Of a stretch of DNA of 64,000 bases, positions 4,085-62,340 are shown piece after piece. A model generated the notes under the pieces. That model was given only the letters and a program-made list of their open reading frames with translations, ran no database searches and was not told where the DNA came from. How positions within the stretch are numbered: position 1 is the stretch's first letter; each line of letters starts with the position of its first letter. Position numbers and translations under genes: made by a program. Origin of the DNA: Octopus sinensis. Taxonomy: Eukaryota. Where the stretch lies: positions 145,762,001-145,826,000 of the forward strand of contig NC_043000.1 in NCBI RefSeq assembly GCF_006345805.1. Reading direction: 5' to 3'.

Positions 4085-4192
<108 letters not shown>

Positions 4193-18794: not shown

Positions 18795-19110
18795 TTTTGA
18801 TAAGCCTGGTACTTATTCTATCAGTTTCTTCTTGTGAAACCAGTAAGTTATGGGGATGTAAATAAACGAACTCCGGTTGTGAAGCAGTGGTGAGGAAGAA
18901 ACACGAAGACACACACACATAGACTTACATATATACATACATATACATAAAATTGATTTCTTTCAGTTTTTGTCTACAAAATCCATTGACCAGGCTTTGG
19001 TTGGTCTGAGGCTATAGCAGAAGACACATGCCAAGTTACCACACATTGGGACTGAACTGAGGACCATGTGTTTTGGAACCAAGTTTGTTACCACACAGCC
19101 ACACCTGCAC
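18795..19110 (-). mobile_element. Degenerate SINE, family A (with internal microsatellite)
   Basis: Diverged match to 43211-43622 and 52622-53025. Confidence 0.8.
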
Positions 19111-19347
19111 TTATGTATGTGTGTGTGTATGTGTGCATGGGTGTATATGTGTATGCATATATATGTGTATACATATGTGTACATGTTACCTGTACATCTA
19201 TATATATATAAGGACACAGGATAAAATGTGTCGAAGCTGTCAGGAGGCGTTCGATGCCTCCTAGGGCTATATATAACGGTGGTGTACCCCCTACTGTCAC
19301 GTTCTTGTTAGATTGACAGTATATCGCTCCACCACCGTACAGCTCTC

Positions 19348-21440
19348 TCAAAAATTTTTTTACTCAAAAATTTTCACCAAAAATTTTACCCAAAAATTTT
19401 CACCAAAAATTTTACGAAAATTTTCACCGAAAATTTTACACAAAAATTTTCACCAAAAATTTTTTGAAAATTTTCACCCAAAACTTTACCCAAAAATTTT
19501 CACCAAAAATTTTACACAAAGATTTTCATCAAAAATTTTTCGAAAATTTTCACCGAAAACTTTACCCAAAAATTTTCACCAAAAATTTTTGGAAAATTTT
19601 GACCGAAAACTTTACCCAAAAATTTTACGAAAATTTTCACCGAAAACTTTACCCAAAAGTTTTTCGAAAATTTCACCCAAATATATTTCGAAAATTTTCC
19701 CCAAGAATTTTTCGAAAATTTTCACCAACAACTTTTCGAAAGTTTTCACCCAAAACTTTACCCAAAAATTTTCACCAAAGATTTTACCAAAAAATTTTCA
19801 CCAAAATTTTTTGGAAAATTTTGACCGAAAACTTTACCCAAAAGTTATTCGAAACTTTTAACCAAAAATTTTTCGAAAACTTTACCCAAAAATTTTTCGA
19901 AAATTTTCACCAAAAATTTTACCCAAAAATTTTTCGAAAATTTTCACCAACAACTTTTCGAAAGTTTTCACCAAGACTTTACCCAAAAATTTTCACCAAA
20001 AACTTTACCCAAAAATTTTCCGAAAATTTTACTCAAAAATTTTCACCAAAAATTTTACCCAAAAATTTTCACCAAAAATTTTACGAAAATTTTCACCGAA
20101 AATTTTACCCAAAAATTTTCACCGAAAATTTTACCCAAAAATTTTCACCAAAAATTTTTTGAAAATTTTCACCGAAAACTTTACCCAAACACTTCCACCA
20201 AAAATTTTACACAAAAATTTTCACCTAAAATTTTTCGAAAATTTTCACCGAAAACTTTACCCAAAAATTTTCACCAAAAATTTTCCGAAAATTTTCACCA
20301 AAAATTTTTGGAAAATTTTCACCGAAAACTTTCCCCAAAAATTTTTCGAAAATTTTCCCCAAAAATTTTTCGAAAACTTTACCCAAAAAATTTTACGAAA
20401 ATTTTCACCGAAAACTTTACCCAAAAGTTTTTCGAAAATTTCACTCAAATTTTTCGAAAATTTTCCCCAACAATTTTTCGAAAATTTTCACCAACTTTTC
20501 GAAAGTTTTCACCCAAGACTTTACCCAAAAATTTTCCGAAAATTTTACTCAAAAATTTTCACCAAAAATTTTACCCAAAAATTTTCACCAAAAATTTTAC
20601 TGAAAAATTTTCGGAAAATTTTCACCGAAAATTTTACCAAAAAATTTTCACCAAAAATTTTTTGGAAAATTTTCACCGAAAATTTTTACCGAAAATTTTA
20701 CCAAAAAATTTTACGAAAATTTTCACCGAAAACTTTACCAAAAATTTTCCGAAAATTTTACTCAAAAATTTTCACCAAAAATTTTACCCAAAAATTTTCA
20801 CCAAAAATTTTACGAAAATTTTCACCGAAAACTTTACCCAAACACTTCCACCAAAAAATTTACACAAAAATTTTCACCAAAAATTTTTCGAAAATTTTCA
20901 CCGAAAACTTTACCAAAAAATTTTCACCAAAAATTTTGCGAAAATTTTCACCGAAAACTTTACCCAAAAGTTTTTCGAAAATTTTCCCCAAAAATTTTCC
21001 CCAAAAATTTTCACCAAAAATTTTCCCCAAAAATTTTCACCAAAAACTTTACTGAAAAATTTTCGGAAAATTTTCACCGAAAACTTTACCCAAAAATTTT
21101 CACAGAAAATTTTACCCAAAAATTTTTCGAAAATTTTTACCGAAAATTTTACCAAATATTTTTTGAAAATGTTCACTGAAAATTTTCAACAGAGACTTTA
21201 CCAAAAAATTTTCAGAAAATTTTACCCAAAAATCTTTTGAAAATTTTTCCGCAAAAATTTTTCAAAACTTTTCAACAAAAACGTTACCCAAATATTTTTG
21301 GAAAATTTTCACCGAAAATTTTCACCAAAAATTTTACCAAAAAATTTTCTGAAAATTTCACAGAAAATTTTACCCAAAAATTTTTCGAAAATTTTCCCCA
21401 AGAATTTTTTTAAAACTTTCACCGAAAACTTTACCGAAAA
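19348..21440. repeat. 2.1 kb satellite of ~11-13 bp variant units (CC/CG-AAAA(A)TTTT-CA/AC)
   Basis: Continuous aaaattttcacc / aaaactttaccc / aaaatttttcg variants. Confidence 0.95.
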
Positions 21441-22140: not shown

Positions 22141-22148
22141 TATATATA

Positions 22149-22313
22149 GGCGCAGGAGACGCTGTATGGTAAGTAGCTTGTTTACCAACCACATGGTTCC
22201 GAGTTCAGTCCAACTGCGTGGCACCTTGGGAAAGTGTCTTCTACTATAGCCTCGGGCCAACCAAAGCCTTGTGAGTGGATTTGGTAGACGGAAACTGAAA
22301 GAAGCCCGTCGTA

Positions 22314-22383
<70 letters not shown>

Positions 22384-22580
22384 TGTGTGTGTTTGTGTGT
22401 CTGTGTTTGTCCCCCTAACATTGCTTGACAACCGATGCCGGTGTATTTATGTCCTTGTTACTTAGCGGTTCGGCAAAAGAGACCGATAGAATAAGTCCCG
22501 GCGTCGATTTGCTCGATTAAAGGCGGTGCTCCAGCATGGCCGCAGTCAAATGACTGAAACAACTAAATGAGAAAGAGAAA
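22149..22580 (+). mobile_element. tRNA-derived SINE, family A
   Basis: ggcgcaggag...ggttccgagttcagtcc head, internal (TA)n/(GT)n, tail ctccagcatggccgcagtcaaatgactgaaac; six copies in the window. Confidence 0.92.
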
Positions 22581-26180: not shown

Positions 26181-26187
26181 ATATACA

Positions 26188-26743
26188 CACTGGCGAAAAT
26201 AAATTTAAGATCGATGATAAAAGTTCTATTTCTTACAAAATATTCTGTTACTAGTCCTTTGCCGATATTTATATTGATCGGTCTCCGAGTATAACTTCCA
26301 CGCTTGCACGCAAGCCGGTTCACTGCACTTTAGTTGCTTGCTGATGTTCGAAAAGGAAACTTTTTGCTGTAATATACGATTTTTGCTCTCGTGACTGGAC
26401 TAAGGCTACGTTGTTTTCCCATTATTAATAAATTGTATAATAACATTAAATTATAACTTTATATGGTGCATTTAGGCTCGTTATGTGACCATCCATTTTG
26501 GCCAAAACAATTGCATACATATTACATGGTCTTAAACTAACTTTGCCGTTAAATTTGAAACGTTTATATTTAGCATTAGAATTCTTCAAGTTGTATAAAA
26601 ATAGTTATTGTCTGCATCATTCGAATGAGAAATAAATTTTGCATAAGGTGTAAACGATAAAAATAATTTGTATGGTATAGTAACAAAATATTTTGTAAGA
26701 AATAGAACTTTTATCGTCGGTCTTAAATATATTTTCGCCAGTG
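26188..26743. mobile_element. MITE with ~65 bp TIRs starting CACTGGCG
   Basis: cactggcgaaaataaatttaagatcgatgataaaagttctatttcttacaaaatatt is the reverse complement of about 26687-26743; inserted next to (TA)n. Confidence 0.85.
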
Positions 26744-26749
26744 TATATA

Positions 26750-27775
26750 TCTCAGGTCATCCCATAAGTCCTGTCCAAATTTTGGATAAAGAATACAAGT
26801 GATCAAATGTTATATTTAATTCAAAGTTAATCATCAATGTACTTTCCCTGATTATCTATGACTTACTTCCATCTATTTACAAGCTTTTTAATTCCATCAA
26901 TCTAAAACTCTTTTGGATCCAAAGCGAAGAACTCTGAAATGTCAGGTTCAACCTTCTCCTGGCTTGCGAAAGTTATGTCCCCGTAATAATTCTGTAAACT
27001 ATGAAACAAATGGTATCCTGAAGGAGTAAGGTCGGGAGAATAAGTTGGATGAAAAACTTTTTCCAGGCCGACCTCTTCGATCTTCTGTGATGTGATCTTT
27101 GCAGTGTGGGGTTGCGCATTGTCCTGATGAAACATCACTCGTTTTCGACTCACTAAAGCGGCTCTTTTTTCCTTCAAAGCTTGGTTCAAACGCTCTAATT
27201 GCTGACAGTAGACTTGAGCATTGATTGTTGCATTAGGTGGTGACAATGTAAAGTGAATTACGCCTTTGCAATCGCACCAGATAGAGAGAAGAACTTTTTT
27301 CCCATAAAGTTCCCTTCTCGGTTGTGGTTGAGCATTTTCCCTTTTAACAAACCACTGTTTACGACGTTTAATATTTTGATAGAAAATCCATTTTTCGTCA
27401 CATGTCTATCGAAAAAGGATGAAATGAGTTTGCGAGAATGGAGGGAAGAGCAGATGTCAACTCGGGATTTGCGGTTGCTTTCGGACAATACATGAGGCAC
27501 CTATTTTCCAAGTTTAGGAATCTTTCCACGTTGTTGAAGATGACGATGAACTGTCGTATGGTTTGAAGTAAGCTTTAATGCCAATTCTTCAACTGATAAT
27601 GACGGATCTTCTTCAAGGAAGGCCTCAAGGAGCTTATCATCAAACTCAACTGGACGTCCTGTTCGATATTCATCTTCAATTTTGCAAACGATCTCCTGCA
27701 CGTTCTTTCACTCAAGCACTTTCCCATAAACTGAGTAATGTTTCGAGTCACTTCGGCTGCAGAGTTACCTTTATT
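26750..27775 (-). mobile_element. Decayed mariner transposon, 5' end interrupted
   Basis: Frameshifted ORFs with HQDNAQPH, HPTYSPDLTPSGYHLF, RTGRPVEFD and KGNSAAEVTRNI motifs. Confidence 0.9.
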
Positions 27776-28307: not shown

Positions 28308-28405
28308 TCGAAAACTTTACCCAAAAATTTTCCGAAAATTTTCACCGAAAATTTTACCCAAAATTTTTCGAAAATTTTGACCTAAAACTTTACCCAAAAA
28401 TTTTC
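28308..28405. repeat. Short outlier of the AAAATTTT satellite
   Basis: Same units as 19348-21440. Confidence 0.9.
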
Positions 28406-29720
28406 CTTCCTTTTGCATTCGAAAACAGATTTGCCGATTCTGACGTATGGAGTATAGAATAAATTTTATTTTATTTTAGATATTTGCATTAAAAAAAAAT
28501 TAACACTACAATGTTTTCTATAAGCCAACTCTCGTAAGCATTTTATACCACGAATATATAACGACGACGACGACGTCACATTTTCTATATGAATGTGTAC
28601 CACAAAACACATCTACGTATCTTCCTTTTGCATTCGAAAACTGATTTGCCGATTTTGACGTATGGAGTATAGAATAAATTTTATTTTCTTTTAGATATTT
28701 GCATTAAAAGAAATTAACTCTATAATCTTTTCTATAAGCCAACTCTCGTAAGCATCTTATACCACGAATATATAACGATGACGATGACGTCACATTTTCT
28801 ATATGAATGTGTACCACAAAACACATCTATTTCTCTACTTCTTATGAGGAAATACAGTCACTTTCACACACACACACATGCACTCTCGCACGCACACATA
28901 TATACAAAAAGCATGTATTATATCTATTTATGTATATGTATATGAAATATGTGCGTGTGTGAGACAGAGAGACCGAATGAAGGCCACTTACACATATGTG
29001 ATAACACATGCATACACTCATTCACTGTATCTCTCCTCTCTCTCTATCTCTCTCTCTCTCGCTCACTATCTCTCTCTCTCTCTCTCTCTCTCTCACGCAC
29101 ATGCACACACACCCGTTTGATATACACTTACATACACCGTTCACTTTCACCTCCGTTTCACTTTCTGCTCTCTCCTCAAAGCAAATGTCACGTTTTCACT
29201 TTCTCTTCTCTTTCAATTTCTGCTTTCTGTAAAGCATATAGAAATTTTAAAAAATTACGGAAATGAACGAATACATTCGAAAATTGCGTTGCCGATTTTG
29301 ACGTATTAGGTATCAAAAGATTCAGTAATTTTTCGGCTAACAAATAAACGTTATTTTTCATTTAAACATTTGCATTACAAATATTTAACATTATAATCTT
29401 TCTATAATTCAACTATCCTAAATGACATTTTACAACACAACAACGACGACGTCTCATTTTCTACATGAGTGTTTACCTTAAAATGCATCCATTTCCCTAT
29501 CTCCATATGTTATGAGGAAATACAGACACTCACTTTCTCTCTCACATGCACACGCACACATACATACAAAAGTATGTATATATACATGTATTTATCTGCA
29601 TGTATGTGAAAGATAATGTGTGCGTGTGTGAGAGAGAGACAGAGAGATTGAATGCCACTTACACATACATGCAAAATATACACACATGACAACACACACC
29701 TTCACTCACTCACTCACTCA

Positions 29721-30900: not shown

Positions 30901-30930
30901 GAAAACCGAAAGATGTGTATATATATATAT

Positions 30931-31265
30931 ATCTATAAGACTGCCATATTAATGTATATTTGACACACAAACTGTGTCCATTATAACCTTCGAACAAGGG
31001 AGGTCAGCCGCTTCACACTGCCAGTCAGACAGCTACAGACGCGTTTCAGGGTATTTGCCCTTTGTCAATGTAGCGTAATCGACCCAGCAGGTGTCGCTAC
31101 TGATCGTCTCTGTTCGAAGGTTTTATTTACCTAATTTCGGTGGAATACATCCACTTGTTTTCAATAATAGAAATATTAAAATTACTAAATCTCTCTAAAA
31201 GAGATTACGGCAGCGTTACTGGAAATCAATTGTTATCGCCATATTAATATGGCAGTCTTATAGAT
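30931..31265 (-). mobile_element. 335 bp HHR-bearing element with inverted termini, within (TA)n
   Basis: Termini atctataagactgccatattaat / attaatatggcagtcttatagat; internal stem aaccttcgaaca/tgttcgaaggtt encloses the HHR. Confidence 0.75.
31032..31074 (-). ncRNA. Decayed minimal type I hammerhead ribozyme
   Basis: Minus strand: gctaca-TTGACAA-aggg caaata ccct-GAAA-cgcg-TC-tgtagc; 6-bp stem I, palindromic stem III, GUC site; core has two transitions from CTGACGA. Confidence 0.7.
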
Positions 31266-31603
31266 ATATATATGTATGTATGTATATATACTTTATAATT
31301 AGGGTTCAGCAAAAATTTGCTTTACCACATACCGAAGTTTAGAACTAGCAGCCCAAAAACCTTAGCTATTTCTTCTACTTTAAAAAGGGACTCCCAGAAA
31401 AAAACCAAAATACTTGAAACACACACACACACACATACACACACACATATATATATATATATATGCATGTATGTACATTTATTGTATCCTTTTGACATAT
31501 TGTGATAAATGTGTGAGCATATCTATATATATAATGAGGATGATGATGATGATGATGATACCGCGTACACCAAATGGGAATCTCTACATGTCACACCTTC
31601 TGT

Positions 31604-31692
31604 ATTCTTAAGTAACGAGGAAATGGATTTGCTATTAATCTTCGTACAAAATAAAGATTAATACAAAATCCATCTTCTCATTACTTAAGAAT
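31604..31692. repeat. ~89 bp imperfect palindrome
   Basis: attcttaagtaacgaggaaatggatttgctattaatctt / aagattaatacaaaatccatcttctcattacttaagaat. Confidence 0.85.
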
Positions 31693-38429: not shown

Positions 38430-38853
38430 GGAGCAGGAGTGGCTGTGTGGTAAGTAGCTTGCTAACCAACCATATGGTTCCGAGCTCAGTCCCACTGCGT
38501 GGCATCTTGGGCAAGTGTCTTCTGCTATAGCCCCGGGCCGACCAATGCCTTGTGAGTGGATTTGGTAGACGGAAACTGAAAGAAGCCTGTCGTATATATG
38601 TATATATGTATATATATATATATGTATGTGTGAGTGTTTGTGTGTCTGTGTTTGTTCCCCTAGCATTGCTTGATAACCGATGCTGGTGTGTTTACGTTCC
38701 CGTCACTTAGCGGATCGGCAAAAAGAGACCGATAGAATAAGTACTGGGCTTACAAAAAAGAATAAGTCCCGGGGTCGAGTTGCTCGACTAAAGGCGGTGC
38801 TCCAGCATGGCCGCAGTCAAATGACTGAAACAAGTAAAGAGTAAAAGAGTAAA
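38430..38853 (+). mobile_element. tRNA-derived SINE, family A
   Basis: Full-length match to the other family A copies; (aaagagt)n tail. Confidence 0.92.
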
Positions 38854-39786: not shown

Positions 39787-40099
39787 TGAATTTTTGGTGT
39801 AGCATAATTATAAATAATTTTCTCATGAGGAAATGCAGAGAATGGCTTCCTTACCGGTTCAAATATTTTCCATGCGTATTTGAACATATAACAAGTTTGT
39901 GTTTAACATCACTGCGTAACGCTTCTGCTCTGCATGTATAAATTAATAGCATACAAATGGCGTCTAAGGTAGCTACAGCTCTTTCGATACTGTTTACGAC
40001 TACACTGAACAGCTATTAGTAATTTGGACGCCATTTTGTGTTACTATACTTACATACGGGCATACATACCTACAAATATACATACATAAAATAAATGAT

Positions 40100-40853
40100 A
40101 AATGCACCCTTTTAAAGTCTAGCCAGGCTCATGAGCCCGGTTTCCCAGGTTTCAATGGCGTATGTGTTCCCCAGCTGGACGGGACGGCAGTCCATCGCAG
40201 CGTTACTCATTTTTGTCAGCTGAGTGAACTGGAGCAACGTCAAATGAAGTGTTTTGCTGAAGAGCACAACGCGTCGCCCGGTCCAGGAATCGAAACCACA
40301 ATCTTACGGTCATGAAGCTGACACCCTCACCACTAAGCCACGCGCCTCCACTAAATGTTCCCTTTTAAAGCCTAGCCAGGCTCATGGACCCGGTTTCCCG
40401 GTTTTAATGGCGTATGTGTTCCCCAGCCGGTCGGGACGCCAGTCCATCGCAGCGTTACTCATTTTTGCCAGCTGAGTGGACTGGAGCAACGTGAAATTAA
40501 GTGTTTTGCTCAAGAATACAATGCGTCGCCCGGTCCAGGAATCGAAACCACAATCTTACGATCATGAAGCTGACACACTAACCACTAAGACACGCGCCTC
40601 CACTAAATGTGCCCTTTTAAAGCCTAGCAAGACTCATGGACCCGGTTTCCCGGTTTTAATGGCGTATGTGTTCCTTGGCTGGACGGGACGCCAGTCCATC
40701 GCAGCGTTACTCGTTTTTGTCAGCTGAGTGGACTGGAGCAACGTGAAATGAAGTGTTTTGCTCAAGAATACAACGCGTCGCCCAGTCCAGGAATCGAAAC
40801 CACAATCTTACGATCACGATACTGACACACTAACCACTAAGCCACGCGCCTCC
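40100..40853 (-). mobile_element. Head-to-tail trimer of a ~250 bp tRNA-derived SINE
   Basis: Units at 40100, 40353 and 40605, each starting (minus strand) ggaggcgcgtggcttagtgg...ggtttcgattcc (A and B boxes). Confidence 0.92.
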
Positions 40854-43210: not shown

Positions 43211-43622
43211 TTTTACTCTTTTACTCTTTTACTTGTTTCAGTCATTTGACTGCGGCCATGCTGGAGCACCGCCTTTAATCGACCAACTCGACCCCGGGAC
43301 GTATTCTTTTTGTAAGCCCAGTACTTATTCAATCGGTCTCTTTTGCCGAACCGCTAAGTAACGGGGACATAAACACACCAGCATCGGTTGTCAAGCAATG
43401 CTAGGGGAACAAACACAGACACACAAACACACACATGTATATATATATATACATATATACGATAGGCTTCTTTCAGTTTCCGTCTACGAAATCCACTCAC
43501 AAGGCTTTAGTCGGCCCGAGGCTATAGTAGAAGACACTTGCTCAAGGTGCCACGTAGTGGGACTGAACCCGGAACCATGTGGTTGGTAAACAAGCTACTT
43601 ACCACACAGCCACTCCTGCGCC
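43211..43622 (-). mobile_element. tRNA-derived SINE, family A
   Basis: Reverse complement of the family A sequence. Confidence 0.92.
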
Positions 43623-46600: not shown

Positions 46601-47017
46601 TATACGCACATACACGCATTCATATACATATGATATATATATATGTATATATGATATATATTTATAAATAAAGATAATATCGATATTATCAAGTGGCCAG
46701 TATGGTATGGTATGTACATATATACGCACATACACGCATTCATATACATATGATATATATATATATATATATATGATATATATATTATATATATATATAA
46801 TATATAATATATATATATATTATAATATGTATATGAATGCGTGTATGTGCGTTATATGTACATACCATACCATACTGGCCACTTGATAATATGGTGGAAA
46901 GGGGAGAACAGAGATTCTTCGCTTGCTTATTTTGAATTGTTGGCACTGTTAGTTGGGAGCAGATCTTCGAAAGGGTATGTTCTTATTTTCAGTGTTTCCA
47001 AATCCAAACCAAGGAAT

Positions 47018-47074
47018 TTCCGAGCCGATGATAGAAATGTTGTTTTGACTAATCTTGAAACGTACGTTCTCGAA
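47018..47074 (+). ncRNA. Hammerhead ribozyme motif, array 1 copy 1
   Basis: ttccgag-CCGATGA-taga...tctt-GAAA-cgtacg-TT-ctcgaa; palindromic stem III, GUU site after 47068; stem II weak. Confidence 0.65.
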
Positions 47075-47563
47075 TAACCTTAGCATTTGATTTTTCGATG
47101 TCCTTACCCCCAAACTTTTGTGAGTTGAATTATGCAAACACTATATATGAGAGAGATTTTCTTTAAGTATTAGAAATAGCCTTAAAAAAGTTTTTTAGCT
47201 GCTATTTCTAATGAGTTCAGTATGCGGCAAAGTAATTTATTTTACTAAGCCCTTTTATATAATGTAATAATTTGAATTCGCCTTGAATGGTCCCTTTGCA
47301 TACTGAACACTTGGTGAAATTGATTAATAATTAATTAATTTTGCCCTCAATTGTTGAAATTATAATTAATCTCCCTCTGATTAATACTTCGGATTTTACC
47401 GAAATAAGCATAGAGTTTGATGATTTTAACCCACGCTGGTGGAAAGGGGAGAACAGAGATTCTTCGCTTGCTTATTTTGAATTTGTTGGCACTGTTAGTT
47501 GGGAGCAGATCTTCGAAAGGGTATGTTCTTATTTTCAGTGTTTCCAAATCCAAACCAAGGAAT

Positions 47564-47620
47564 TTCCGAGCCGATGATAGAAAAGTGTTTTTGACTAATC
47601 TTGAAACGTACGTTCTCGAA
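47564..47620 (+). ncRNA. Hammerhead ribozyme motif, array 1 copy 2
   Basis: Same core and stems as copy 1. Confidence 0.65.
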
Positions 47621-48103
47621 TAACCTTAGCATTTGATTTTTCGATGTCCTTACCCCCAAACTTTTGTGAGTTGAATTATGCAAACACTATATATGAGAGA
47701 GATTTTCTTTAAGTATTAGAAATAGCCTTAAAAAAGTTTTTTAGCTGCTATTTCTAATGAGTTCAGTATGCGGCAAAGTAATTTATTTTACTAAGCCCTT
47801 TTATATATGTAATAATTTGAATTCGCCTTGAATGGTCCCTTGCATACTGAACACTTGGTGAAATTGATTAATAATTAATTAATTTGGCCCTCAATTGTTG
47901 AAATTAAATTAATCTCCCTCTGATTAATACTTCGGATTTTACCGAATAAGCATAGAGTTTGATGATTTTAACCCACGCTGGTGGAAAGGGGAGAACAGAG
48001 ATTCTTCGCTTGCTTATTTTGAATTTGTTGGCACTGTTAGTTGGGAGCAGATCTTCGAAAGGGATGTTCTTATTTTCAGTGTTCCAAATCCAAACCAAGG
48101 AAT

Positions 48104-48160
48104 TTCCGAGCCGATGATAGAAATGTTGTTTTGACTAATCTTGAAACGTACGTTCTCGAA
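48104..48160 (+). ncRNA. Hammerhead ribozyme motif, array 1 copy 3
   Basis: Same core and stems as copy 1. Confidence 0.65.
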
Positions 48161-48441
48161 TAACCTTAGCATTTGATTTTTCGATGTCCTTACCCCCAAA
48201 CTTTTGTGAGTTGAATTATGCAAACACTATATATGAGAGAGATTTTCTTTAAGTATTAGAAATAGCCTTAAAAAAGTTTTTTAGCTGCTATTTCTAATGA
48301 GTTCAGTATGCGGCAAAGTATTTATTTTACTAAGCCCTTTTATATAATGTAATAATTTGAATTCGCCTTGAATGGTCCCTTTGCATACTGAACACTTGGT
48401 GAAATTGATTAATAATTAATTAATTTTGCCCTCAATTGTTG

Positions 48442-48503
<62 letters not shown>

Positions 48504-48577
48504 AATAAGGATAATATCGATATTTAAATATTGATATTATCAAGTGCCACATGGTATGGTATATATGATATATATAT

Positions 48578-48619
<42 letters not shown>

Positions 48620-48623
<4 letters not shown>

Positions 48624-49009
48624 TGTGTGGTAAGTAGCTTGCTAACCAACCACATGGTTCTGGGTTCAGTCCCACTGCGTGGCACCTTGGGCAAGTGTCT
48701 TCTGCTATAGCCCCGGGCCGACCAATGCCTTGTGAGTGGATTTGGTAGACGGAAACTGAAAGAAGCCTGTCGTATATATGTATATATATATGTGTGTGTA
48801 TATGTTTGTGTGTGTGTGTTTGTCCCCCTAGCATTGCTTGACAACCGATGCTGGTGTGTTTACGTCCCCGTCACTTAGTGGTTCGGCAAAAGGGACCGAT
48901 AGAATAAGTACTGGGCTTACGAAGAATAAGTCCCGGGGTCGATTTGCTCGACTAAAGGCGGTGCTCCAGCATGGCCGCATTCAAATGACTGAAACAAGTA
49001 AAAGAGTAA
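48620..49009 (+). mobile_element. tRNA-derived SINE, family A
   Basis: Match to family A, missing the first ~10 nt. Confidence 0.92.
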
Positions 49010-52621: not shown

Positions 52622-52622
<1 letters not shown>

Positions 52623-53025
52623 TTTACTCTTTACTCTTTTACTTGTTTCAGTCATTTGACTGCGGCCATGCTGGAGCACCGCCTTTAATCGAGCAACTCG
52701 ACCCCGGGACTTATTCTCTGTAAGCCCAGTACTTATTCTATCGGTCTCTCTTTTGCCGAACCGCTAAGTGACGGGGACATAAACACACCAGCATCGGTTG
52801 TCAAGCAACGCTAGGGGGACAAACACAAACACACAAACACACACACATACACATACATATATACGACGGGCTTCTTTCAGTTTCCGTCTACCAAATCCAC
52901 TCACAAGGCTTTGGTCGGCCCGAGGCTATAGTAGAAGACACTTGCCCAAGGTGCCACGCAGTGGGACTGAACCCGGAACCATGGGGTTGGTAAACAAGCT
53001 ACTTACCACACAGCCACTCCTGCGC
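52622..53025 (-). mobile_element. tRNA-derived SINE, family A
   Basis: Reverse complement of the family A sequence. Confidence 0.92.
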
Positions 53026-53817: not shown

Positions 53818-55389
53818 ATGTATATTTCTATATATACATATCTAATATATATACCTATATAAATATATACATATATATAATATATATATTTGTATATATA
53901 TATATATATATAATATATATATATATATATACATATTTATTATACATACATATATACATATGTACATCATGTGAGAGAGAGAGAGATAGAAAGAGAGTGT
54001 TGGTGCGTACGGATTGGAGAGTGGGAGGCGAAGGAGCAGAGCAGAGTCATAGAGAGGTAATTATCACAATTGTGAGGAAGGCAAAAATTCGGGGAGAGTT
54101 TAAAAAATACTAAGGATCACAAAAGAAGGAAATGATAGGTTACGTGTTCAATGAAAAATTGTTTAAAGTAATACAGCAGATATATTAAAGTTTGACAGGG
54201 AGATATCGAAAAGTACATATTTAGAGTCATAGCAAAATTAGTAAATGCGGAGAGGCCTACCAATTACGATACAGATAATCAATAAATGAATCTATATATT
54301 TGTACTCTTCTTATTTGTTCCATTGTTTCTTTTGCCAATAATTTGTCACAAATTGTTAAGAGCCACTAATCAAGAATATGGAGCGCATTAACAGATATAA
54401 ACATACACAAACCAGTCGATATTGTGCAGTTAATTAAAATCCAAGCCAGTGATACGTTTACTGTTTCTCTTGTTACTAAAGTGGTAGTCATGTTGTTGAT
54501 CATCCTTCAACATGTCTTGTTATTTATTCATAATGTTGTCATGGGTGTAACACTTGCTGAAGCCGATATTGTGTTAATGAGGTTGCATCTATTGGCTGAG
54601 ATGTTGGTGGAAGAGGAGTTTTTCTTTATTTGTTTTATTATGCGTGTTGCATTGTTTCCCTTCTTTCATTAATCATCAGATATTTTCTGAGAAAAATGTA
54701 CGCAAATTTAAAGTGTCCAAACAACGACAATCATGGCAGACACCGACGCCTATTCTCTACGCTGTTACACTTTGATCTTTGATTAAAGCTACTATTGTGT
54801 AAGTGCGTATGTGTGTGAGAGAGGAAGTGAATGTATGTATGAAGTTATTTGTAAATATGTGTATATACATTTAATTGCATATAAATGCTCATATATACAT
54901 ATGTATATATATATATATAGAGAGAGAGAGAGAAAGAGATAGATAGATAGATAGATAGATATCATACATACACATGCACACATACACACAAACATGTATA
55001 CATACATACATATATATATAAATATAGATAGATAGATAGATACAGATATACATATATGTATACTTATATATATATGTATATATATAGAGAGATAGACATA
55101 TATAGATACAGATATACATATATGTATACTTATATATGTGTATATATATATATATATATAATATTAATTTATCTCCCTCAATTTTTAATATTTAAATAAA
55201 TACGTTCCCTAGTAGTAAGCTTTACCCGCAGTGAATTATTCACTGCAGCCCTTCGCTTCAGGAGTCTCTTAGCGCGCCGGAACCAAGACATTTGAAATTT
55301 TATTCCCGATGTAATCAGTAAGACTAAGCACGTGTCTGTCTTGACACAGAGAGCTGGGGTTAGTCTTTCAGTTTGCATCTCGAGGACCG

Positions 55390-55465
55390 AATGTACTGAA
55401 GAAGTCACGGACACTTGAATTATGCAAGTAATTCTTTTGTTAAGACCGAAACCGAGGTATGCATT
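55390..55465 (+). ncRNA. Hammerhead ribozyme motif, array 2 copy 1
   Basis: aatgta-CTGAAGA-agtc...gaattat GCAA gtaattc...gacc-GAAA-ccgagg-TA-tgcatt; 6-bp stem I, extended stem II capped by a GNRA loop, GUA site after 55459. Confidence 0.8.
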
Positions 55466-55928
55466 TAAGTCTGTTTTTATATTAATTTTTCATATGTCTG
55501 CCCGCCAAATTTGGTTCTGGTGTTCGCTGAATTCTTCCTCTAGAGAATTCCGTTGTAGTTGATCGTTGATGATCTATTCTAGCATTCTGGCCGGCTACCT
55601 AGCAGGCCAGCCCTGCCAATATACACATATTTGAATTTTCTCTGACTCCTCAGATTTTTGAATGCTGGACTACTGGTTTTAAATTGATATTAAAATTAAT
55701 ATTAATTTATCTCCCTCAATTTTTAAATATTTAAATAAATACGTTCCCTAGTAGTAGGCTTTACCCGCAGTGAATTATTCACTGCAGCCCTTCGCTTCAG
55801 GAGTCTCTTAGCGCGCCGGAACCAAGACATTTGAAATTTTATTCCCGATGTAATCAGTAAGACCAAGCACGTGTCTGTCTTGACACAGAGAGCTGGGGTT
55901 AGTCTTGCGGTTTGCATCTCGAGGACCG

Positions 55929-56004
55929 AATGTACTGAAGAAGTCACGGACAATTGAATTATGCAAGTAATTCTTTTGTTAAGACCGAAACCGAGGTATG
56001 CATT
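55929..56004 (+). ncRNA. Hammerhead ribozyme motif, array 2 copy 2
   Basis: Same core and stems as copy 1. Confidence 0.8.
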
Positions 56005-56444
56005 TAAGTCTGTCTTTTATTTAATTTTTCATATGTCCTGCCCGCCAAATTTGGTTCTGGTGTTCGCTGAATTTGATCGTTGATGATCTATTTCTAGCAT
56101 TCTGGCCGGCTACCTAGCAGGCCAGCCCTGCCAATATACACATATATTTGAATTTTCTCTGACTCCTCAGATTTTTTGAATGCTGGACTACTGGTTTTAA
56201 TTGATATTAAAATTAATATTAATTTATCTCCTCAATTTTTAAATATTTAAATAAATACGTTCCCTAGTAGTAAGCTTTACCCGCAGTGAATTATTCACTG
56301 CAGCCCTTCGCTTCAGGAGTCTCTTAGCGCGCCGGAACCAAGACATTTGAAATTTTATTCCCGATGTAATCAGTAAGACCAAGCACGTGTCTGTCTTGAC
56401 ACAGAGAGCTGGGGTTAGTCTTGCGGTTTGCATCTCGAGGACCG

Positions 56445-56520
56445 AATGTACTGAAGAAGTCACGGACAATTGAATTATGCAAGTAATTCTTTTGTTAAGA
56501 CCGAAACCGAGGTATGCATT
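56445..56520 (+). ncRNA. Hammerhead ribozyme motif, array 2 copy 3
   Basis: Same core and stems as copy 1. Confidence 0.8.
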
Positions 56521-56851
56521 TAAGTCTGTCTTTTATTTAATTTTTCATATGTCCTGCCGCCAAATTGGTTCTGGTGTTCGCTGAATTGATCGTTGATGAT
56601 CTATTTCTAGCATTCTGGCCGGCTACCTAGCAGGCCAGCCCTGCCAATATACACATATATTTGAATTTTCTCTGACTCCTCAGATTTTTTGAATGCTGGA
56701 CTACTGGTTTTAAATTGATATTAAAATTAATATTAATTTATCTCCCTCAATTTTTTTTTTATATATATATATATATATAATTATCTTCGTGTGCATATAT
56801 GTGTGTCGGTGTTTGTGTGTGTGTGAGTGTCTGTGTGTATGTGTGTGTGTA

Positions 56852-57120
56852 TTGTACCAAACTTTGGCACTGAGACGCCACTGCAGACTGCCAAGAATCC
56901 CTGTATCTCCATCAAAATACAGGATCAGATACTGCAACAGCTTGGGTTTCAAGCGCCTCCAGTTATTCAATATCCTTCCAAAATACCTGCGGGACCTGCA
57001 TGGTGTGGATCTAGGTGTCTTCAAATCAAAACTCGTTCTCTTCCTGTCAAGGATTCCAGATGAGCCTGCCTCATGGGAGAAAACCAGATGAGGGTGGCGG
57101 CATCTTTAATCATTTGTCTT
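56852..57120 (+). mobile_element. CR1-group LINE 3' end fragment
   Basis: NSLGFKRLQLFNILPKYLRDLHGVDLGVFKSKLVLFLSRIPDEP matches the LFNxLP...FKxxLDxFL..IPDEP C-terminus of CR1/L2-group ORF2. Confidence 0.75.
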
Positions 57121-57134
57121 CCTATGCCCATATA

Positions 57135-57943
57135 TATATGTATATATATATATATATATATCTACATATATATAAGTACAAGAACACCATTCTCAGAATA
57201 AAACAAATAATGCAAAATAATGCAAAGAAATTAACAACAAGAAAAGATAAAAACAATTACTCAAAAGACAAAACCAAGGGAGAAAGACATCCAAAAGACG
57301 CCAGTCAAGAGTAAAGTCCCTTGATTCATTGATTCATTGAATTCATTATTAATGCGAATTTACTAGAAATCCCGCAAACGAAGACAGAATGTTTTCTAAA
57401 AAATAGAGGCGAACATCTTTCTCCATATTATCAACTTGAAAAATGTTTGAGACACTAGAATATTTTCCTACTTTTCTCAACATGAAACTAATGGCCGCCT
57501 TAATTTACAGATACAGAAGTTATATATCCATTTACTTATATATATATATATATATTATATATATATATATCTACATATATATAAGTACAAGAACACCATT
57601 CTCAGAATAAAACAAATAATGCAAAATAATGCAAAGAAATTAACAACAAGAAAAGATAAAAACAATTACTCAAAAGACAAAACCAAGGGAGAAAGACATC
57701 CAAAAGACGCCAGTCAAGAGTAAAGTCCCTTGATTCATTGATTCATTGAATTCATTATTAATGCGAATTTACTAGAAATCCCGCAAACGAAGACAGAATG
57801 TTTTCTAAAAAATAGAGGCGAACATCTTTCTCCATATTATCAACTTGAAAAATGTTTGAGACACTAGAATATTTTCCTACTTTTCTCAACATGAAACTAA
57901 TGGCCGCCTTAATTTACAGATACAGAAGTTATATATCCATTTA

Positions 57944-57975
<32 letters not shown>
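57135..57975. repeat. Apparently identical 409-bp tandem duplication with (TA)n junctions
   Basis: agaacaccattctcag at 57181 and 57590; no differences noticed by eye. Confidence 0.92.
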
Positions 57976-57985
<10 letters not shown>

Positions 57986-58159
57986 TATATATATAATTTA
58001 GAGGAATGACCACTAATAGTGGAAAGCCTGTATGCTAGAAAAAGATGTCAAATTCGCCATTTGCCACGAAGAATGTGTTCTCAAGAAAAATTTCAGGAAA
58101 AACCAAAGTGTAAAAATAAGCAAGACAAATGAAAATATACGAAATAAAAAAACGATTAC

Positions 58160-58234
58160 CCATGTAATAATTAGTTTCACTTGTTAATATTTACGTATAT
58201 GGATACACAAACATCTGCAAGATCGTCAGCATAG
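58160..58234 (-). ncRNA. Hammerhead ribozyme motif, array 3
   Basis: Minus strand: ctatg-CTGACGA-tcttg...caagt-GAAA-ctaattat-TA-catgg; copy 2 has gtaattag-TA-catag, giving consensus palindrome CTAATTAG and a GUA site; long G-U-rich stem II. Confidence 0.75.
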
Positions 58235-58730
58235 TCTGTCGTTTAAGAAATAAAATTTCTAGAACTAGATACAGGGCGCTCGACCGAAATCCAGCATGTA
58301 TAAAGCTCCACAAATTATATTTATGTGTATCTTTCAAATGCCTTCACTTTAGCGCACTAAGATCGGAAATTACTCTGCAGTTAATAAACTACAGCAGTTA
58401 ATTTACCGGCTAGAGAACATTTTTTATTTAAAATTAAATAAGGGTAGAAATTGCTATTAATCAATTAAAACCAGTGGCCTAGCATATTTTAAAAAAATCT
58501 GAAGATTACAAATTTTTCTACATACAAAATTTAGAGAAATGACCACTAATAGTGGACAGCCTGTATGCTAGAAATAGATGGCAAATTCGCCATTTACCAC
58601 GAAGAATGTGTTCTCAAGAAAAAATTCAGCAAAAAGCCAAAGTGTAAAAATAAGCAAGAAAAATGAAAATATATGAAATAAAAAAACCATTACCTATGTA
58701 CTAATTACTTTCACTTGTTAATATTTACGT

Positions 58731-59110
58731 GGAGGCGCAATGGCCCAGTGGTTAGGGCAGCGGACTCGCGGTCGTAGGATCGCGGTTTCGATTCCCAGAC
58801 CGGGCGTTGTGAGTGTTTATTGAGCGAAAACACCTAAAGCTCCACGAGGCTCCGGCAGAGATGGTGGTGATTCCTGCTGTACTATTTCACCACAACTTTC
58901 CCTCACTCTTACTTCCTCTTTCTGTTGTACCTGTATTTCAAAGGGCCGGCCTTGTCACTCTCTGTGTCACGCTGAATATCCCCGAGAACTGCGTTAAGGG
59001 TACACGTGTCTGTGGAGTGCTCAGCCACTTACACGTTAATTTCACGAGCAGGCTGTTCCGTTGATCGGATCAACCAGAACCCTCGTCGTCGTAACCGACG
59101 GAGTGTTTCC
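58731..59110 (+). mobile_element. Full-length tRNA-derived SINE with an 11-bp TSD
   Basis: A box tggcccagtgg, B box ggtttcgattcc; TSD aatatttacgt at 58720-58730 and 59111-59121. Confidence 0.93.
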
Positions 59111-59304
59111 AATATTTACGTATATGGATACGTAAATATTGACGTCTATTTCTAGTATACAGGCTTTCCACTATTAGTGGTCATTCCTCTAAATTTTGTA
59201 TGTATAAAACTTTTTAATCTTCGGATTTTTTAAAATATGCTAGGCCACTGGTTTTAATTGACTAATATCAATTTCTGGCCTTATGTAATTTTATATATAT
59301 ATAT

Positions 59305-59342
<38 letters not shown>

Positions 59343-60398
59343 TGTATATATATTGTATATTATATATATATATTAAAAGGTTTGGATATGAAGTACAGAT
59401 AATATATATTAGAAAAAAATAGGGGATTCAGAAATCTGGATGGTTGTACATATACAAATATCTATTAACATGTCAGTTTGTTATATTTCGCCGCTTTGAT
59501 GCTGTATTTAACTCCCGAACCGCTGTCCCGATTCAAAGGAAAATATAATCCCGATAGGTATAAGCCTGTAAGCTGTAATCCTCCGGTAATATCTATGAAC
59601 AGTGTTTATATAAATCTGCTCACTGCAATAAATTATTCTTTCTAGGGCCCTAGCAAATGAGGTTAAAATGAATTGTTCTATAATTCTAAGATATACAATA
59701 AAATGTTGACGGATTCGGCACAGTTTTGCTACTGTGGTGTCCAAACCACCGTAATTATTTTCAGTATTGCTATGGAAAATATTATTGCTGCATATTCTGT
59801 GTCACTTGTGACTGAAGAGACTCATTCACAATGTCATACCAAATATGATTTTCAATTTAATTTTTTTCTGGCCACACATATCAAGGATTAAAAAAGAATT
59901 TTCTTTCTAATTTCGGTAAGCTTTTGTATACTTTCAGCGTAATTTAACTGCAAATTTTGACAAGTCAAAAGGCTATATAAAGTACGTGATGTCTCACTAT
60001 TTGGCACTAGTTGAACCAGAAAGAAGGAACATGTATTGGCTTAGTTCTACGTATCCAAAATCATAAGATATATCGCAATAACATTATTCTTAAATTTAAA
60101 CTCAGATTCTCACATGTTTCTCCGTATGTATCACCGCTGCTTTATATAGTTGGCAGTAGATATGAACGTCAGCTACACCGAGATAAACAGTATATTTCAA
60201 ACAATGCTTCCGGTTATTGCACTTAACATTTCAAACAACGGCCTGCTGCATCCGAAACAGCCTACGGTTAAAAGATCACCAACCAATAAAGACAATAGAC
60301 TACGCCAAGTAATGTTGTTACTATCATTATTTTCAATTCTATATTTAAGAGATGAGTAATTATGTACATTAATTTCATTATTTACAATGTTTGTTGTT

Positions 60399-60444
60399 AA
60401 CACAACGTTTCGGCTGATATACTCTGCAGCCTTCATCAGGTGTC
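60399..60444 (-). ncRNA. Minimal type I hammerhead ribozyme
   Basis: Minus strand: gacac-CTGATGA-a-ggctg cagagtatat cagcc-GAAA-cg-TT-gtgtt. Confidence 0.8.
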
Positions 60445-60523
60445 TTGGGGAAATTCCGAACCTGGGTTCTCATTCCTAAGGTATTTTTCGATGTTGTTGT
60501 TGTTGGTATTATTATTATTATTA

Positions 60524-60559
<36 letters not shown>

Positions 60560-60569
60560 GATAATGATG

Positions 60570-60659
<90 letters not shown>

Positions 60660-60727
60660 TTACCAACAACAATAACAACATCGAAAAATACCTTAGGAAT
60701 GAGAACTCAGGCTCGAAATTTCCCCAA

Positions 60728-60773
60728 GACACCTGATGAAGGCTGCAGGGTATATCAGCCGAAACGTTGTGTT
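60728..60773 (+). ncRNA. Minimal type I hammerhead ribozyme
   Basis: gacac-CTGATGA-a-ggctg cagggtatat cagcc-GAAA-cg-TT-gtgtt; stem III is the loopless palindrome AACGTT; GUU site after 60768. Confidence 0.8.
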
Positions 60774-62340
60774 AACAACAAGCAAGGCGAGGACAAATAC
60801 CCGTCAATTGTAAATAATGTAAATAATGTGTCTTTATTTTTGCAATAATTTGTGATGTCATATTTATCTCCGAAATTATATTATAACATTTCATGTTGTT
60901 CTTTATATTCTCAATTCAAGATTTCATACTAATCATCTTTGTCAATCTTCATATTTATCTTCATAATAGTTACAATTAATTTGATTAGTAATAAGATTAT
61001 TGACTGTGATGATCTTTATTGTACATCCTGTTGCCAACATTAACAAAAGCAGAAGCATCACAGTCGCATTCATGATCATGGCCACCACCACCAACACCCA
61101 AATCATCATCATAGCAGTCATGATTGTTGACAACATTCACCATCGACATATTAACGCTGTCGTTAAAGCTGAAAATGACAATGATATATTTATTTGCGAT
61201 CGGCGTTATAGTCGTGGACACTTGATTCAATATCATTAATATCGTCGTCTCTTTTTTCAACTTTCATAATTTCATTATATCTTCATCATCACCCTGTCAC
61301 GATATTCACCTGTGTTTGGTGTGTGCTCGCGCGCGTGTGTATGTGTGTGGGAGTGTATTTTGAAATAGAATAAAAGTTAATCATTTTCTAATGAGTATGT
61401 CACATAAATTGATTCGATACAAGATTAAATCGAGCAAACAACCAGAACCTGAATTTCTAAATTCTGATTTCTATTCCTGTTCCCAGTGTGATGGACTGGT
61501 AAAAAAATGCCCGTTTATAACTACCTTCTTTTATGCTGGTATTTAAAATTAGACCGAGGCAAATTGCATTTCGTCAATCCGAGGATCGATAATTTGAAGT
61601 AGTAATCTATTCTTGATGCCGATATAACCCGCCATGATCTAGAAAAAAAAAAATGCTATTGTTATTATTTTGGAGGAGAAAGAAAAGATTAAGGATCGGT
61701 AAGGAATCCATTGTGGTACTGGATCTGATTTTTACATTCTGACTTCAAATTCCACTGAGGTTCACATCAATCTTCATCTTTTTAACGGTTCGTCATAAGA
61801 GGACGATAGAATAATTACCAGTCTTAAAAAAATATATATACTGGGGTTGAGTTTTTCAACCAAAATATTTTCTCGATGTGGTGCTGCACCATGACCACAT
61901 TCTATTGACCGAAATAATTAGAAGATAAAAGATCATAAAATGGAGACACAAAAAAATTAGCGGCTGAAGTGTGTTGAGGGGCGGTTTAACCCCCAATTGA
62001 GGGGCGGTTTAACTAAACCCATCTTCTCAAAATATCTAAATTAAGCACATGTATATGAAAAGGGTGATAAATTAGTAAGATCCTTTGAGCATCGGAAATA
62101 ATATTTACTACCTTTGCTGTGACTCTTTACGAGTTGAGATCAAATTGCACGAAGTTTAGATTCCGTCTTCGTCTTCTCGGATCAAGAAAATAAAATAAAA
62201 AAGCAATTCAACTAATGGGCTCGCCGGAATCGATTATCTCCCTCCGCTCAAACTTTTTGTACTTCACCCTAAATCAGAGACAATTATTGAACTATTACTA
62301 TATTGAATTATTACTATCAATAATATTAGTAAATGGCTTC

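Follow-up and report, generated by a model that had tools for sequence, protein, structure and literature searches.

A hammerhead-bearing repeat insertion in Octopus sinensis with an inverted 5' arm and a junction palindrome suggestive of a short cDNA snap-back

According to Craig et al. (2021, PMC8557442), a truncated, inverted copy is a standard feature of the 5' end of Penelope-like elements, and how the tandem and inverted ends come about is unresolved. Inverted Penelope junctions with palindromes have already been published, and Arkhipova et al. (2013, PMC3846280) interpret them as self-priming. The PAc Poseidon protein, a predicted dimer, is reported to cleave and extend both target strands from the same internal reverse transcriptase (RT) start sites, with hammerhead cleavage unnecessary for insertion (Frangieh et al. 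2024, PMC11167929); the accessible text of that paper does not treat inverted junctions. Animal retrozymes have been argued to be non-autonomous Penelope derivatives (Li et al., bioRxiv 10.64898/2026.07.22.740005). A palindromic stem III is described as the dimer-type design of metazoan hammerheads (PMC4209133), and a basal U-U in helix II is known from axolotl HHR_Amex2 (PMC7229834). The word 'inverted' is absent from the available text of PMC7229834, and in that of the bioRxiv preprint it occurs only within a reference title. A search of partly accessible literature, thin on subscription journals, found nothing that links an inversion junction to hammerhead stem II.

Our study examined a window of 64 000 nucleotides of the O. 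sinensis assembly GCF_006345805.1 (contig NC_043000.1, positions 145,762,001 to 145,826,000), in which 57996-59292 is occupied by 1.4 monomers of a non-coding, high-copy repeat of 533 bp, inserted in (TA)n (Table 1). The insertion is like those of EN+ Penelope-like elements in its partial tandem with an adjacent inverted, truncated pLTR copy (PMC3846280; PMC8557442), in its junction palindrome (18 bp and 38 bp in the Adineta examples of PMC3846280), in its (TA)n or AT-rich target, which hides target duplications, and in its putative fixed RT start site. It is unlike them in that no RT/GIY-YIG ORF is found at the octopus locus and in that the palindrome is traceable to hammerhead stem II, where G-U wobbles make self-templated letters countable. 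With the metazoan non-LTR retrozymes described by Cervera and de la Pena (2020, PMC7229834) and by Li et al. it shares tandem monomers that are non-coding, low in GC and equipped with a single type I hammerhead each, a weak palindromic helix III suited to dimer cleavage and the U-U at the base of helix II, whereas its monomer of 533 bp exceeds the typical length of about 300 bp, its stem II is long (4 + 13 bp) and the locus holds only one whole ribozyme. PAc Poseidon in vitro has the same fixed internal RT start sites, AT-rich targets and cleavage and extension of both strands, but is an autonomous element with a minimal hammerhead.

Two other systems are similar in part. At the snap-back 5' junctions of R2/PRINT the cDNA 3' end self-primes before 5' joining, as may have happened here (PMC11371274, PMC11331408); those junctions, however, come from an engineered R2 protein in human cells and one target-primed cDNA, whereas the octopus insertion is natural and its second arm starts at the 3' terminus of the element. 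In L1 twin priming and dual priming both target strands act as primers, and the two resulting cDNAs meet in a head-to-head junction; in dual priming, synthesis on the second RNA begins at the normal 3' start, which would also be the case here (PMC2837659); unlike the poly(A) priming and internal twin-priming start of L1, the octopus start is a fixed non-poly(A) motif on (TA)n. The element is probably a Penelope-related non-LTR retrozyme and a further family of a known type, as judged from its structure. The inverted 5' segment, which the initial annotation had compared with Penelope insertions, is indeed a truncated inverted copy with a junction palindrome. The fold-back is real but extends over 8 nt only, and the locus as a whole is a well-preserved case of a structure that was already known.

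Table 1. Features of the insertion and its immediate surroundings (window coordinates)
Feature	Position	Strand	Remarks
(TA)n target microsatellite, left	57940-57995	n/a	3' side of main arm
Monomer 1 of the 533-bp repeat	57996-58526	minus	
Type I hammerhead, copy 1	58160-58234	minus	Descriptor scan, core at 58229
Copy 1 stem I, core and GAAA	58230-58234/58160-58164; 58223-58229; 58175-58178	minus	
Copy 1 stem II	58179-58222	minus	U-U at base, 4 bp + 13 bp; loop 58199-58202
Copy 1 stem III	58166-58175	minus	Predicted cut between 58165 and 58164
Preferred family 3' terminus	58425-58430	minus	Putative RT start; internal site here
Monomer 2, 3' part reaching the SINE	58527-58730	minus	Carries the ribozyme 3' half only
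Left target-site duplication of SINE	58720-58730	plus	11 bp
tRNA-headed SINE	58731-59110	plus	380 bp; within stem II 3' strand
Right target-site duplication of SINE	59111-59121	plus	Also the start of the palindrome left arm
Perfect palindrome	59111-59140		Arms 59111-59123 and 59128-59140; 4-nt loop 59124-59127; apparently RNA-templated to 59132
Snap-back (self-templated) insert	59133-59140	plus	8 nt, putative, from junction comparison; last 2 nt common with inverted arm
Inverted 5'-truncated arm	59139-59292	plus	= 58584-58429; ends at family terminus
(TA)n target microsatellite, right	59293-59373	n/a	Joined to inverted arm terminus

Copy 1 (57994-58196) and copy 2 (58527-58730) lie 533-534 nt apart and are identical in 189 of 203 columns. 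This unit-to-unit identity of 93% compares with 99% in the two other arrays of the window, array 1 (537/541) and array 2 (505/510), where the 1% difference consists mostly of homopolymer indels; the insertion is thus older than arrays 1 and 2. The initial annotation had read the greater divergence as older activity, and the greater age of the insertion stands, whereas the divergence does not show when the family was active. Base composition is low in GC (226 G+C in 737 nt). No stop-to-stop frame of at least 90 amino acids overlaps 57995-59292, and an RT + GIY-YIG ORF between pseudo-LTRs is absent there.

Family letters were taken from two public contig runs (X1 and X2) aligned to 57994-58730, a stretch that comprises monomer 1 and the part of monomer 2 before the SINE; the SINE and the palindrome junction lie beyond it and are read from the assembly. 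On these 737 nt 4124 (X1) and 3953 (X2) contigs align, figures that are not a copy number, and the 533-bp repeat is a large dispersed family. Variant letters refer to the best 40 of 191 variant places, among which the lowest best-run share is 67%. All arms of the insertion carry non-majority letters at 58539 and 58573, so they stem from one source lineage. Across 24 public runs the highest share of the words of the stretch in any single run was 0.57. Runs labelled or guessed as RNA reached at most 0.28, about the share of the SINE, which carries no information on expression, and two pattern scans of metagenomes gave no match. Raw runs X22 and X23 yielded only 34 and 1 partial reads, respectively, all of them on the A-rich patch and continuing unlike the stretch. 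These two runs share the species label of the best-matching run, yet have almost no reads of the family, owing to a wrong label or to filtering.

A descriptor of the hammerhead (CUGANGA...GAAA...UH with stems I-III) is satisfied by the minus-strand match at 58229. Rfam gave no hits at gathering score in the window, and a search of 55000-61000 that admitted E values up to 5 gave 30 matches, (TA)n and other chance hits below gathering score, with no hammerhead family among them. The latter search likewise missed the hammerhead motifs of array 2 and at 60439/60733; Rfam is blind to this ribozyme, so the assignment rests on the descriptor and on conservation in the family. Relative to the family majority, copy 1 has decayed at 58161, 58167, 58207 and 58225. 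The majority letter at 58225 restores the CUGAUGA core (103522 of 115892 depth, X1), that at 58167 restores the palindromic stem III CTAATTAG (18776/19967) and that at 58161 closes stem I. A consensus hammerhead with a CTAATTAG stem III, as first proposed, is accordingly what the family majority carries: a CUGAUGA core, an all-Watson-Crick stem I of 5 bp, a stem II of 17 bp with a basal U-U and a stem III of 3 bp. The majority stem III is a 10-nt palindrome with a self-pairing energy of -9.0 kcal/mol, whereas copy 1 reaches -2.0. In neither form is the hammerhead the fold of lowest predicted energy: it has -18.0 kcal/mol in the majority form, where the MFE is -21.3, and -6.7 in copy 1, where the MFE is -14.2. 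Li et al. take two consecutive whole hammerheads as the mark of an active element; here copy 2 is without the core and carries the SINE, and the locus is a relic. With one decayed ribozyme and one half ribozyme split by the SINE no cut monomer can be obtained from it, and the locus is likely to be without function.

A hammerhead-like motif is also seen in all three units of array 1 (46892-48449, plus strand; 47025, 47571 and 48111). Its core CCGAUGA replaces CUGANGA, for which reason the standard descriptor misses it, and it has an 8-nt palindromic stem III (self-pairing -9.8 kcal/mol); here too the hammerhead is not the predicted minimum fold.

Stem II of copy 1 (58175-58229) forms a 13-bp helix on the minus strand at -11.0 kcal/mol, a value equalled by 8 of 200 shuffles. 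On the plus strand only 4 bp are left at the apex (-4.8 kcal/mol; 91 of 200 shuffles as good) because four of the 13 pairs are G-U, in agreement with the original observation that the stem pairs through wobbles on the minus strand. Three of these four wobbles are family-level, whereas that at 58207 is a private decay of copy 1, the family majority there being a C-G pair (19691/21253). In copy 2, removal of the SINE and its duplication leaves the perfect palindrome that had been described, with 13 Watson-Crick pairs at the empty site, or 14 when the SINE is present. Its folding is exceptional on either strand (z = -4.5 and -4.9; none of 200 shuffles as good).

Comparison of the two copies at the junction revealed that copy 2 follows the RNA template to 59132 and then continues with 8 nt that are the exact complement of the left arm. 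Copy 2 has T at the equivalents of all three wobble sites (58208, 58212 and 58215), where copy 1 keeps C throughout. None of these sites is among the best 40 of 191 variant rows, in which no best-run share is below 67%. The family is therefore not fixed for the perfect stem; we infer that T is carried by less than about two thirds of the family at each of them. A-to-I editing as a source of wobbles private to copy 1 was considered and ruled out, as T is not the fixed family letter there. At the C-to-T rate of the locus (5 of 117 sites, from the best 40 of 191 variant rows), point mutation has a probability of about 2e-3 for two given sites and of 8e-5 for three. The third wobble site falls in the 2-nt overlap with the inverted arm, which leaves two sites that are fully independent. 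The cDNA can form a 5-bp DNA hairpin at the loop (-2.2 to -3.1 kcal/mol), and the perfected palindrome appears best explained by a short cDNA snap-back. This snap-back covers 8 nt and not the long inverted arm.

The inverted arm of about 150 bp had been noted beyond the palindrome, and 59139-59297 does match 58584-58425 at 90%, with 15 substitutions and one gap over 160 positions. Among the best 14 of 591 loose ends, the one supported by most contigs in both runs is the join of (TA)n before 58425 (31 in X1 and 45 in X2), and the inverted arm ends at this same family terminus and passes into (TA)n. Arrays 1 (46892-48449) and 2 (55159-56769), which otherwise are different families, end on (TA)n at a homologous motif of about 90 nt. 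Since the arm ends at the family terminus on (TA)n, it is a short copy begun at the normal 3' terminus, and most probably the other target strand primed it as a second cDNA. The initial annotation had the cDNA self-priming on stem II and then switching template; the self-priming is retained for the 8-nt snap-back, whereas the end of the arm of about 155 bp at the family terminus favours a second cDNA over the switch. The homologous terminal motif was also aligned in its own right (48350-48460, 56660-56775 and 59200-59305; 64% mean column identity, all on (TA)n) and is a candidate recognition and RT-start signal for a common Penelope-like partner.

The opposite end of the insertion is less regular. 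The outer end of the main arm, at 57996, lies about 100 nt inside the usual family terminus, which calls for either a second start site or a deletion after the insertion. At this end there are 6 nt of microhomology, one of them mismatched, by which a deletion becomes plausible. Penelope-like elements may carry an optional tail of 30-40 bp; the outer ends here differ by about 100 nt instead. Directly to the left, 57130-57993 is a (TA)n-bounded tandem duplication of 409 bp, 98% alike, which could be linked to the loss of the outer end of the main arm.

On balance we hold it probable, by a modest degree, that the locus is a dead insertion formed by dual priming in (TA)n with an 8-nt snap-back of the first cDNA. 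In this account a high-copy, non-coding hammerhead tandem element (a non-LTR retrozyme or a solo pseudo-LTR array) would have been moved by a Penelope-like RT/GIY-YIG protein, both strands of the (TA)n target would have been nicked, and each would have primed reverse transcription. The first cDNA would have covered 1.4 monomers and halted just past the stem II loop, at 59132, where its 3' end would have folded on the 5-bp DNA hairpin and extended 8 nt on itself, turning three G-U-type mismatches into Watson-Crick pairs; either RT or a host end-joining polymerase may have made this extension. The second cDNA would have begun at the usual family start site and run for about 155 nt. The two cDNA 3' ends would then have been joined via a 2-nt (loosely 5-6 nt) microhomology into the head-to-head structure, and a tRNA-derived SINE would have inserted later at the TT/AA step at the palindrome base.

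Dual priming with a snap-back is favoured by the restoration of the ribozyme in the family majority and by copy 1 of the same insertion, which retains the wobble form. It is favoured also by the inverted arm, which ends at the terminus marked by 31 and 45 contigs, as arrays 1 and 2 end homologously. Its steps have precedents: cleavage and extension of both strands by a Penelope-like protein in vitro (PMC11167929), cDNA snap-back in R2 (PMC11371274) and the dual priming proposed for L1 (PMC2837659). On the other side, it needs the second start site or deletion for the 57996 end, the arm shares the letter at 58024/58557 with copy 1, which also fits copying from the first monomer, and the junction is known only from the assembly. 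The same final anatomy would result from one cDNA which, after the 8-nt snap-back, jumped to an earlier part of itself and was copied back to the terminus and the (TA)n primer, after which the self-complementary (TA)n copy would anneal to the other target end and the left end would later lose about 100 bp. We regard this course, a more specific form of the self-priming and template switch of the initial annotation, as rather unlikely. In R2 the cDNA is documented to snap back onto internal positions of itself (PMC11371274), the self-priming of Arkhipova et al. (PMC3846280) is in keeping with it, and the deletion microhomology at the left end counts in its favour. It requires, however, a jump of about 670 nt plus the later deletion; a jump to the nearer site (58582) would leave the stop at the family terminus unexplained, and the ends of described Penelope copies often differ by a 'tail' bounded by two RT start sites, a sign that the two ends were initiated separately. 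The letters of the arm are divided, as it sides with copy 1 against copy 2 at 58024/58557, which suits the single cDNA, and differs from both at 58046/58579; such shared-letter patterns do not separate dual priming from a template jump.

A formation without any snap-back at integration, from a variant source monomer, from A-to-I editing differences or by later correction of a quasi-palindrome, with the breakpoint at the helix base, seems improbable. The palindrome does end exactly at the natural end of the 13-bp helix, where the SINE duplication starts, and the three differences are A/G on the RNA strand. A minority subfamily with a perfect stem could moreover sit outside the best 40 of 191 variant rows, which weighs against the snap-back itself, as this rests on two fully independent letters. 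The wobble form, however, is kept by copy 1 and, by inference, by roughly a third of the family depth as a minimum and probably by the larger part of it; point mutation would have the low probabilities given above, and a snap-back accounts for all 8 letters without mutation and creates the joining microhomology. An artefact of assembly, namely a fold-back chimeric long read, we judge very improbable. The homopolymer indels between the units of arrays 1 and 2 do suggest uncorrected long-read sequence, the best run has 0.57 of the words of the stretch, and the run alignment spanned 57994-58730. Nevertheless, the arms differ at 16 of 160 positions, whereas those of a read chimera would be near-identical. 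Of 9 informative sites, 5 have the majority letter of the family in the inverted arm but not in the sequence from which it would have been copied. The clean SINE duplication and the biological terminus at the end of the arm also speak against a chimera.

Strand switches in other copies bear on whether the stem II apex is a hotspot. Among 15 of the 24 joints found in the contigs, given without their orientation, six are strand switches (58141/58634, 58245/58531, 58250/58569, 58491/58635, 58544/58653 and 58633/58678). None of these six, with 12 ends, lies within 40 nt of the stem II apex; uniform placement expects 0.47 ends within 10 nt of it. The probability of none in six is 0.016 if half of all junctions fell at the apex, 0.12 at 30% and 0.53 at 10%. 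These values speak against the stem II apex as a dominant hotspot and are compatible with a minor one, and short snap-backs may escape detection. Breakpoints at hairpin apices, the prediction attached to the first description of the locus, hence do not emerge as a general rule among these joints. Snap-back stems within 12 nt of the joint ends, scored on the plus strand only, were likewise scarce: those of at least 5 bp occurred at 0 of 12 ends against a background of 17%, and those of 4 bp at 2 of 12 against 39%.

All 12 ends lie 62-355 nt from the terminus. The ribozyme cut site is at 268, and 10 of the ends fall short of it (P = 0.02 under uniform placement), a distribution that fits two short cDNAs started at the terminus. 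Half of the ends (6/12) fall in a 46-nt A-rich tract, 58633-58678 (unit-equivalent 58100-58145), three of them within 58633-58635. The A-richness at joint ends has p = 0.024 against the whole unit and 0.12 against the range 60-360 nt from the terminus. This clustering may be due to RT drop-off on U-rich RNA or to an alignment effect, as the A-rich patch also draws spurious alignments. It is a tentative and rather doubtful generalization that Penelope-type inverted ends arise by dual priming at a fixed start site, with the two RNAs possibly held by a stem III dimer and with host end-joining and short snap-backs completing the junction. In that case the U-rich RNA tract (weak rU:dA) just short of the ribozyme-cut 5' end would have more influence than hairpin apices on where a cDNA ends.

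The SINE lies within stem II and is flanked by an exact 11-bp duplication (58720-58730 = 59111-59121), as had been described. Its head has a Pol III A box (58741-58751) and B box (58785-58795); ARAGORN detected no intact tRNA in it, and elsewhere in the window it is matched at only 73-74% (40275-40853). We take it to resemble the tRNA-derived SINEs of octopus; a family name for it was not found in the literature searched. The duplication starts at the first base of the palindrome, at a TT/AA step, the kind of step cut by LINE endonucleases. If the junction formed at integration the SINE must be later, unless the source RNA already carried it, and insertion after the inversion is likely. An extra palindrome pair forms with the last base of the SINE, which would fit the reverse order with the SINE in place first and counts to that extent against the order proposed here; the same G is also supplied by the inverted arm. 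The claim of a later SINE hit is thus firm as to the element and its duplication and likely, rather than proven, as to the order. At 40099-40853 three tandem units of 252 bp each match the head of this SINE at 73-74%.

The locus bears two readable marks, namely the stem II G-U wobbles, which tell RNA-copied from cDNA-copied letters, and the fixed family terminus, which tells where an arm starts. Read across thousands of family copies, both marks could separate dual priming from jumping within one cDNA without biochemistry. Alone, the locus does not settle how Penelope inversions arise; it is useful mainly because it directs attention to a family whose copies allow the mechanism to be tested. 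If dual priming were true in general, the family would be a natural data set for settling the question that the Penelope literature itself admits (PMC8557442).

Other structures of the window are of related kinds. The 5' junction of array 1 adjoins an inverted duplication of flanking DNA around (TA)n (46683-46892), with related sequence recurring to the right of the array (48495-48570), and appears to be a fold-back on target DNA and not on the element. A second inverted structure of the Penelope type, at 60388-60784, is a head-to-head pair of a short hammerhead segment with 137-bp arms (93%), cores at 60439 (minus) and 60733 (plus) and a (TAT)n(ATA)n centre. Further inverted repeats occur at 389-552, 672-826, 31604-31692, 26181-26750 and 30919-31277, several of them on or beside microsatellites. 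A second dispersed repeat, of about 400 bp, has six copies that are 74-93% alike (18795-19114, 22141-22578, 38430-38853, 43211-43621, 48620-49009 and 52622-53025), of which that at 38430-38853 has only an indirect match to the neighbourhood of the 252-bp units at 40099-40853. Part of a 125-amino-acid frame at 56860-57090 (plus) may resemble the C-terminal end of a LINE ORF2. A degenerate 2-kb satellite with a unit of 12-13 nt occupies 19358-21440, and a short related patch is found at 28309-28406.
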